In this document: in pieces, positions 2,086 to 2,920 of the stretch
How positions within the stretch are numbered: the stretch's first letter is position 1
Layout of the letters: each line of letters opens with the position of its first letter
DNA from: a virus
Taxonomy: Duplodnaviria; Heunggongvirae; Uroviricota; Caudoviricetes
Length of the DNA: 7,813 nucleotides
Reading direction: 5' to 3' (one strand)
Virus record (IMG/VR): IMGVR_UViG_2529292715_000014
Coordinates: 1 to 7,813 of that record
Notes under the pieces: generated by a model
Told to the model about the DNA's origin: nothing
The model's input: the letters and a program-made list of their open reading frames with translations, nothing else
Database searches by the model: none
Translations under genes and position numbers: made by a program

Positions 2086-2781
2086 TCACTTAGGGTATGG
2101 CTGAACCTTGAATAGTTTGGTATTTAGCCGCTTCCTTGCTCGCTTGTTCAGGAATCTGATGTAGCGATACTGATTAAATTTGTGCACCACGGCACGCTCC
2201 TTATTAGCTCGCAAATACTCGCCTCGTTGCCCTCCGCGCTTAATCGCGTTCATCGTTATCTCGTGATACCACTCACCATCCAGCTCGTAGAACGTGCTTT
2301 CATGGCTGCCAATAAAATCAAAATTCGACGCCTGATACACAACGCCTGCGAGTCCGCAGCGTTCGTCAGCAAAGGACTGAACCCACTCCACTGACGGATA
2401 CAGTAATCTGATAACTTTCAGCGCGTAGCTGATGGCCCGTGATTCAGAGTTGCGGGGCATGTCGTCGTGTAGCCACATGCGATTCAACTCCATATAGCCC
2501 CGGTTATCCGTTTCAAGCACGACACGACGACCTGAGTTGGGGTTAAGGGCATATCCCCACTGGAGAACGCCAACCAGATCACGCCCGCTGAATACTCCCA
2601 GGTGAAGGTAAGAGTTATTCACAAAACGGCGGGAATAGTGCTTTGTCTGAATGATTGTGCGGGCCAGCCAGCAGGATATGGTTTCAACGCGCAGCTCCTT
2701 TGAACCATAGCCAACAATCTGGCCTTCATACTCAATAACGCACGGTTTCGTCAGAATGCGTGATTTCTTCTCTTTTCCCAC
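2086..2781 (-). CDS. mom: Mom DNA modification protein (adenine modification, anti-restriction); start assigned to GTG at 2781, alternative in-frame ATG at 2811
   Basis: Long minus-strand ORF immediately downstream of and overlapping com, ending 115 bp before the Mu right end, which is the position of mom in Mu. GTG at 2781-2779 has a GGAG Shine-Dalgarno 7 nt upstream; ATG at 2811 has none. Confidence 0.8.
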
Positions 2782-2920
2782 AATGTTTCTCCGTGGGATG
2801 CTCGCAGGCATTCAGCATTATGATGTGACGTTTGCAACGCGGACACCTGATTTCAATGTGATCAAAGGAATCCGCTTTAAATAACAGTTTGTTGCAGTTC
2901 TTACAGCGAATTGATTTCAT
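2732..2920 (-). CDS. com: Com zinc-finger translational activator of mom
   Basis: Translation [62 protein letters not shown] (62 aa) has the CxxC...CxxC zinc-finger layout and matches Mu Com as I remember it. Strong SD AAGGAGGTGAA lies directly upstream of the ATG at 2920; the track ORF start at 2938 is an upstream in-frame ATG. Confidence 0.9.
2776..2818 (-). promoter_or_regulatory. Putative mom translational control region: upstream hairpin (candidate Com target) followed by a hairpin sequestering the mom GUG start
   Basis: On the mRNA strand, AUGCU (2818-2814) can pair with AGCAU (2802-2798). Immediately 3', UCCCAC (2798-2793) pairs with GUGGGA (2781-2776), placing GGAG in the loop and the GUG in the stem. 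Confidence 0.45.

Follow-up and report, generated by a model that had tools for sequence, protein, structure and literature searches.

The segment 2813-2776 on the minus strand of the window (the whole 7,813-nucleotide stretch of viral DNA analyzed here) is very probably the com-mom translational switch of phage Mu, to whose sequence it is identical. More specifically, the start region of mom, a toxic DNA-modification gene, is sequestered in a stable and conserved stem, and the hairpin adjacent to it is a conserved, covarying RNA element. The start codon of mom is the GTG at 2781, which yields a protein of 231 residues, and not the ATG at 2811. As the sequence is identical to that of Mu and the mechanism is a textbook one, element, mechanism and GUG start all belong to known Mu biology, and the locus holds no new biology. 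What is added here is a corrected register for the hairpin, evidence from covariation and from independence of reading frame, and a set of side observations in other lineages. The features on which the argument draws are the following:

2086-2781, minus: mom coding sequence, 231 codons plus TGA (Pfam PF25680 Mom, E = 7e-75).
2732-2920, minus: com coding sequence, 62 codons (Pfam PF10122 Zn_ribbon_Com).
2776-2798, minus: translation-inhibition stem-loop, UCCCAC 2798-2793 paired with GUGGGA 2781-2776 around a loop of 7-11 nt (ViennaRNA, RNAalifold).
2779-2781, minus: GTG start codon of mom, within the 3' arm of the inhibitory stem (Mu record, literature, PDB 8BV8).
2789-2792, minus: Shine-Dalgarno GGAG of mom, with a 7-nt spacer to the GTG (sequence reading, anti-Shine-Dalgarno energy).
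2795-2813, minus: Com target 19-mer GAAUGCCUGCGAGCAUCCC, whose last three C's lie in the 5' arm of the inhibitory stem (exact match to PMC6483171).
2798-2811, minus: Com hairpin, AUGC 2811-2808 paired with GCAU 2801-2798, with the hexaloop CUGCGA 2807-2802 (literature, covariation).
2809-2811, minus: upstream in-frame ATG, in the 5' arm of the Com-binding stem (no Shine-Dalgarno; replaced in relatives).
2814-2818, minus: AUGCU, the 5' arm of the hairpin as originally predicted, an alternative pairing with AGCAU 2802-2798 (Mu-specific; -3.8 kcal/mol).
2994-3028, minus: three GATC sites 5' of com (sequence reading, alignment with Mu).

The sequence and its list of open reading frames identify 3300-1971 of the minus strand as the right end of a Mu-like prophage, with the order gin remnant, GATC-rich promoter region, com, mom and attR/Mu right end. 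The insertion site is the host gene dpiA (citB), and the Mu right end, ...CGCCGCTTCA, terminates inside this gene at 1971. The response-regulator ORF of dpiA, which opens at 1627 (1627-2010), keeps about 114 native codons before its truncation, where it runs into phage DNA, with dpiB lying upstream of it at 1-1527; the dpiA-Mu junction was not found in any complete E. coli genome. By megablast, the window matches SfMu, Mu, D108 and related phages with 94-96% identity, and across 2730-2940 it is 98% identical to Mu, SfMu and D108. Within 2830-2765, which holds both stems, the GGAG and the GUG, there is no difference from these three phages. The nearest change relative to Mu is an A-to-G at 2764, 12 nt 3' of the inhibitory stem, which is silent in mom, causes K52E in the tail of Com, and is common to other Mu-like phages. 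At the protein level, the Com of the window is 98-100% identical to those of Mu and Mu-like phages, and its Mom is near-identical over 231 residues to the protein in PDB 8BV8 and about 99% identical to known Mu-type proteins; NCBIfam holds no family for either. The two genes overlap by 50 nt, corresponding to the first 16 mom codons, and both hairpins lie inside com. At E <= 1, a search of the whole window against Rfam 15 placed no match on or close to 2776-2818, and its sole hit was a chance-level IS009 match elsewhere.

The locus is an intact copy of the com-mom switch inside a decayed prophage. In Mu, mom is transcribed from a late promoter whose activity requires the phage activator C. The gene for the late activator lies outside the window and is apparently deleted in one matching assembly, in which the prophage is reduced to a truncated MuA, an IS, tail-fibre genes, com and mom. 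Hence, this copy probably lacks the late activator needed for mom transcription, and its switch may be idle. That it is an unused relic here, intact in sequence but with com and mom never transcribed since the late activator was lost, strikes us as evenly poised between true and false. The reduced assembly and the state of the neighboring genes favor such a relic: gin is a pseudogene (3211-3041, minus) with TAA as codon 29 (3127-3125) where Mu has CAA and with an internal deletion of about 390 bp whose junction lies near 3048-3043, and the tail-fibre region is interrupted by IS1 and an IS3-family element. However, com and mom are both full-length in this copy, the Com target and the stem are unchanged relative to Mu, the three GATC sites and the Shine-Dalgarno of com are retained, and an activator could come from a superinfecting or co-resident Mu-like phage. 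The GATC region is homologous to that upstream of the annotated late (mom) promoter of Mu, from which it differs by several substitutions, and by established Mu knowledge its three sites (3028-2994) would be the Dam/OxyR control region. As to the tail-fibre genes themselves, the invertible tail-fibre segment contains the IS1 (4080-4850; insA/insB ORFs 4111-4386 and 4305-4808) and is truncated on its other side by the IS3-family element (6657-7813; ORFs 7813-7511 and 7475-6657, minus), and the U/U' pair is present as duplicated tail-fibre assembly genes at 5068-5595 (plus) and 6157-5624 (minus).

For comparison, two viral scans furnished 160 viral loci encoding relatives of Mom, which share 47-100% identity with one or other of two query proteins; a scan of genomic contigs added three loci, and the diversity of the set hence comes from the two viral scans. 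The 6-bp stem that the original prediction had drawn over the GTG, UCCCAC 2798-2793 with GUGGGA 2781-2776, is borne out by these sequences and by folding. Its core has a pair probability of 0.995-1.0 in all contexts from 71 to 311 nt (ViennaRNA), and RNAalifold on the relatives recovered exactly the six pairs of this downstream stem. The stem also gains two G-U pairs, G2792-U2782 and G2791-U2783, which reach the first two bases of the Shine-Dalgarno; with these, its energy is -8.5 to -9.3 kcal/mol (ViennaRNA). Across 20 related sequences, it either does not vary or covaries: the core CCCAC/GUGGG shows no variation in the Mu-type set, the junction pair U2798-A2776 covaries (UA in 13, CG in six and UG in one of the 20 Mu-type sequences), and C2793 is replaced by U, forming a G-U pair, in one Mu-type sequence. 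Given the invariant core, the covariation evidence for this stem consists of the junction pair and the single C-to-U change. As both the GUG start and part of the GGAG fall within the stem, it equals the published translation-inhibition structure of Mu.

The cost of opening the Shine-Dalgarno-start region was compared with 60 flank shuffles per lineage in 61 unique lineages. In the window (locus L011 of the set) it is 9.65 kcal/mol against 5.35 for the flank-shuffled controls, with two of the 60 shuffles as high; over the 61 lineages the mean is 12.9 against 7.4 kcal/mol, and in 40 of them no more than three of the 60 shuffles reach the observed cost. In distant lineages, it is the Shine-Dalgarno that a CCUCC-type tract pairs with, rather than the start codon. 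Folded in its entirety, the 71-nt segment shows no exceptional stability (z = -0.22; second fold z = +0.56), a measure that is uninformative here, and a repeat search with 6-nt seeds did not list the 6-bp stem, which was verified by reading and folding. A second CC(N)3GAG motif (CCACGGAG) at 2796-2789 on the minus strand spans the inhibitory 5' arm and the Shine-Dalgarno, and similar arrangements of a C-rich tract followed by GGAG recur in other lineages; multiple CC(N)GAG-type motifs and a possible second Com site have been noted before (PMC6483171).

The upstream hairpin required a correction. The native target of Com is GAAUGCCUGCGAGCAUCCC, a 19-mer that folds into a hairpin with a loop of six residues (PMC6483171) and that, on the account given there, was also used in an earlier crystal study. 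The only match to GANNGCCNNNGAGC in the window is at 2813-2795, where 0.07 matches are expected by chance. The resulting hairpin has a C-G closing pair and a loop of the form C-NNN-GA, with the GA contacted by Com at 2803-2802. In contrast, the original prediction had paired AUGCU 2818-2814 with AGCAU 2802-2798 and had placed the ATG at 2811 in the intervening loop. Comparison with the mapped site of Mu upholds the location, in that the 19-mer matches exactly, but leaves the 5' arm 2818-2814 outside it. This arm is thus unneeded for Com binding, and the AUG at 2811 belongs to a stem, being in the 5' arm of the published and comparatively supported hairpin rather than in a loop. Further, U2798 had been used in both stems of the original drawing. 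The five-pair helix can indeed be drawn, but it is confined to Mu and is not the hairpin bound by Com.

Folding by itself gives little guidance on the register. The expectation that both stems would be favored holds for the downstream one, with its pair probability of about 1.0, but the upstream hairpin is weak in both registers, -3.8 kcal/mol for the five-pair and -2.4 kcal/mol for the published 4-bp/hexaloop form, with probabilities of 0.02-0.46 depending on context. The five-pair register is in the minimum-energy fold of the 71-mer, with a probability of 0.18-0.46 there and of 0.02-0.08 in longer contexts. ViennaRNA leans slightly to the five-pair register in Mu itself, and thermodynamics alone cannot choose between the two.

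The relatives allow the two registers to be compared. In an anchor-only test, CCNNNGAG was used as the anchor in 97 unique segments, with no pairing required beyond the closing C-G. All three outer pairs are kept in 59 of these, a degree of pairing not attained in any of 2000 column shuffles. The 59 segments display 12 different stems (AGGC/GCCT, GCGC/GCGC, ACGC/GCGT, AUGC/GCAU, GUGC/GCAU and others), and 27 different C-NNN-GA loops occur among the anchored segments. On a MAFFT alignment of the 20 Mu-type sequences, the published stem has 95% pairing, with changes on both sides in three of its four pairs; the inner pairs of this hairpin were also predicted by an independent RNAalifold run. The pair between U2798 and A2811 covaries on the same alignment (AU in nine, GC in six, GU in five). 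U2798 therefore covaries with both A2811 and A2776, and the same base can close either helix in all lineages. Moreover, of the unique lineages, 21 have the hairpin in reading phase 1 of com and 34 have it in phase 2, which shows selection on the RNA and not on the Com peptide.

By the same measures, the five-pair helix was rejected as the Com-binding hairpin: its 5' arm is outside the 19-mer, which starts at 2813; on the alignment it is 56% paired, with its two middle pairs broken in 15-16 of the 20 sequences; and its pairing is possible in only two of the 59 unique lineages, both Mu proper. A broader version of the idea would make AUGCU 2818-2814/AGCAU 2802-2798, with its 11-nt loop, the functional upstream element in some form, either as the Com target or as a Mu-specific competitor that buries the GA. 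Its place in the 71-mer minimum-energy fold, its advantage of 1.4 kcal/mol over the published hairpin and the suggestion that conformational changes of the RNA may add a regulatory level (PMC6483171) lend it some color. Set against the failure of RNAalifold to predict it, its collapse in longer contexts and its restriction to Mu proper, we nevertheless consider such a role improbable. The published hairpin at 2811-2798 is accordingly the one used in what follows, and the present set gives covariation support to a model that previously rested on probing and binding assays.

The choice of start codon for mom bears on the same bases. The ATG at 2811-2809 is the first in-frame start, with an in-frame UGA (2814-2812) directly before it, and the GTG at 2781-2779 is 30 nt downstream. 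As the original prediction had maintained, the ATG is without a Shine-Dalgarno, the best duplex with the 16S anti-Shine-Dalgarno coming to +1.2 kcal/mol, and the GTG is preceded at a distance of 7 nt by a GGAG that we read at 2792-2789 and for which the corresponding value is -6.6 kcal/mol; for com it is -12.7 kcal/mol. The preference for the GTG over the ATG is likewise confirmed from several directions. In the curated Mu record AF083977, the homologous GTG opens a 696-nt mom and the GGAG is marked as its ribosome-binding site, and the crystallized Mom of PDB 8BV8 is Met followed by VGKEKK..., 232 residues in all. As the Mu record, the literature and the PDB entry all use the GUG form, a start at 2781 agrees with the experimental literature; the papers on Mom enzymology say nothing on the start codon.

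The relatives point the same way. An ATG at the position of 2811 is present in nine of 72 unique lineages, all of them close to Mu, and the others have GUG, GCG, ACG, AGG or AAG there, as the Com stem requires. In 12 unique lineages, including L004 and L089, an in-frame stop separates this triplet from the conserved start; in L004, with 82% Mom identity, the ORF begins at the GTG. Distant Mom homologues begin with MA(K/Q)KP, which aligns with (M)GKEKK. Across the 61 unique lineages scored, and counting from the first base of the hairpin, the Mom-frame start codon falls at +26 to +39, and nearly always at +29 to +35; it is GTG in 30, ATG in 28 and TTG in three.

A 241-residue protein translated from the ATG at 2811 is what automated annotation would have. 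The ORF opens exactly at this codon, the ATG is used for mom in the GenBank records of SfMu and D108 and by RefSeq/PGAP in E. coli, with the GTG in the curated Mu record only, and the 241-residue product is recorded in 217 blocks of public assemblies. Yet it would require initiation without a Shine-Dalgarno, at an AUG that is in the 5' arm of the Com hairpin and is replaced in the relatives, upstream of a point where 12 lineages have stops; the alignment of the distant N-termini and the GUG form of the curated record, literature and PDB entry also tell against it. We regard this start as very unlikely, and the ATG-based annotation of mom is a systematic annotation error. In one E. coli record (L177, 322-1156), for example, RefSeq/PGAP has a 726-nt mom that opens at the ATG, and Com is labelled a 'DNA-binding transcriptional regulator'. 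In RefSeq/PGAP, as in several phage records, mom should thus be re-annotated to begin at the GTG equivalent to 2781 and to encode 231 residues, and Com should be described as an RNA-binding translational activator. A separate peculiarity was seen in L049 (about 700-745), where an extra A in the A-run after the GUG causes the Mom frame to match a UUG two bases upstream; sequencing error, a frameshifted pseudogene and a slippery run are all possible explanations.

That the stems are by-products of coding constraint in the com/mom overlap and not selected RNA elements is the least credible reading of all, for although both lie inside the com ORF, the inhibitory 3' arm lies inside mom as well, and the regional fold energy is not exceptional (z = -0.22, +0.56), the hairpin is kept in two com reading phases, its loop varies freely while C-NNN-GA and pairing persist, its pairs change on both sides, the same module stands 5' of unrelated methyltransferase genes, and the start region is sequestered beyond flank-shuffled controls in 40 of the 61 lineages.

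Taken together with the published work on Mu, these elements suggest how the switch would operate. With the GUG at 2781 and the first bases of the GGAG locked in the stem-loop 2798-2776, ribosomes would be unable to initiate. Com, the 62-residue zinc-ribbon protein of the overlapping upstream gene, would recognize the weak 4-bp/hexaloop hairpin at 2811-2798. Its target, 2813-2795, would include U2798 and the CCC at 2797-2795, which belong to the 5' arm of the inhibitory stem, and Com binding would thereby compete with the stem and open it, exposing the Shine-Dalgarno and the GUG. The overlap itself follows from the 19-mer: as it ends with U2798 and CCC 2797-2795, the target of Com physically overlaps the structure that Com would open, and we infer that competition for these four bases is the means of opening. 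In Mu, Com binds a short hairpin beside a translation-inhibition structure with the GUG in its stem, and melts that structure (PMC6483171); the activation of mom translation by Com binding, as presented there and in the papers that it cites, concerns the identical Mu sequence. The original prediction had recognized this arrangement as that of the known Com mechanism, and it was right in this respect, both published stems being identical to those of Mu, with the correction that the upstream hairpin is a different one. However, no melting of the stem was seen with a truncated Com (PMC6483171), and an earlier study, as described in the same paper, had Com binding an RNA duplex and not a hairpin.

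The module varies in other lineages in ways that may illuminate the version in Mu. In 32 of 66 unique lineages, a second Com-type hairpin with a 4-bp stem and a C-NN-GA pentaloop lies 21-25 nt 5' of the hexaloop hairpin. It is built from eight different stems, including GGGC/GCCC, CAGC/GCUG and GGAC/GUCC, and occurs in L009, L057 and L091-L144 (in L104, at about -66 and -44 from the start of the Mom match). It is absent from Mu and from the window (2833-2812). Hence, most lineages may have two Com sites per mRNA. More speculatively, the Com-responsive element might be a widespread, frame-independent RNA family without an Rfam model, to which two Coms bind cooperatively. Mu and the window would then have a reduced one-site version in which the helix 2818-2814/2802-2798 fills the place of the lost site and U2798 could toggle between partners. 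We put this forward tentatively, as a proposal that is possible but on the whole doubtful.

A Com ORF, hairpin and start-masking stem are also found 5' of DNA methyltransferase genes, in Chuche (L007, about 1004-1045) and Pseudomonas phage UMP151 (L010, 1007-1065), which is consistent with, and was anticipated by, earlier remarks on B3 and FluMu (PMC3299994). UMP151 has two tandem Com-type hairpins, and its stem, of the CCUCC/GGAGG type, masks the Shine-Dalgarno and not the start codon. A further variant is seen in L079 and L081-L083 (about 600-720), whose Mom homologues, 77-78% identical to that of the window, have neither a com gene nor a Com hairpin. Here mom lies directly 3' of a GATC-rich region resembling the Mu promoter and starts with ATG (the triplet is ATA in L082). 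Thus, in some lineages, mom exists without the translational switch.

Among known systems, the closest counterpart is the com-mom control of Mu itself (Wulczyn and Kahmann, 1991; Hattman et al., 1991; Hattman, 1999; all as cited in PMC6483171). The window contains a Com zinc-ribbon gene immediately 5' of and overlapping the regulated gene mom (PF10122, PF25680); a Com target at 2813-2795 in which GA is followed by a C-G-closed 4-bp stem with a C-NNN-GA hexaloop (the CC(N)2-3GAG motif); and, directly 3' of this site, an inhibitory stem-loop that contains the start codon and Shine-Dalgarno (2798-2776). It shares with Mu the entire stretch 2830-2765, including the Com 19-mer, inhibitory stem, GGAG and GUG, as well as the overlap of com with mom and the GATC sites upstream, and differs in the A-to-G at 2764, the substitutions in the promoter region and the degraded state of the prophage. 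The Com-controlled DNA methyltransferases of B3, FluMu (hin1523) and Pnm1 are likewise preceded by a Com homologue, and the 5' end of the methyltransferase gene holds possible Com binding sites (PMC3299994), whereas the gene under control is unrelated to Mom. A more distant likeness is to HIV-1 TAR-Tat (PMC6483171), which too combines a short hairpin, a CC(N)2-3GAG hexaloop and a C-G closing pair with a small basic activator; it is, however, evolutionarily unrelated, and the step on which TAR acts is transcription elongation rather than translation initiation.
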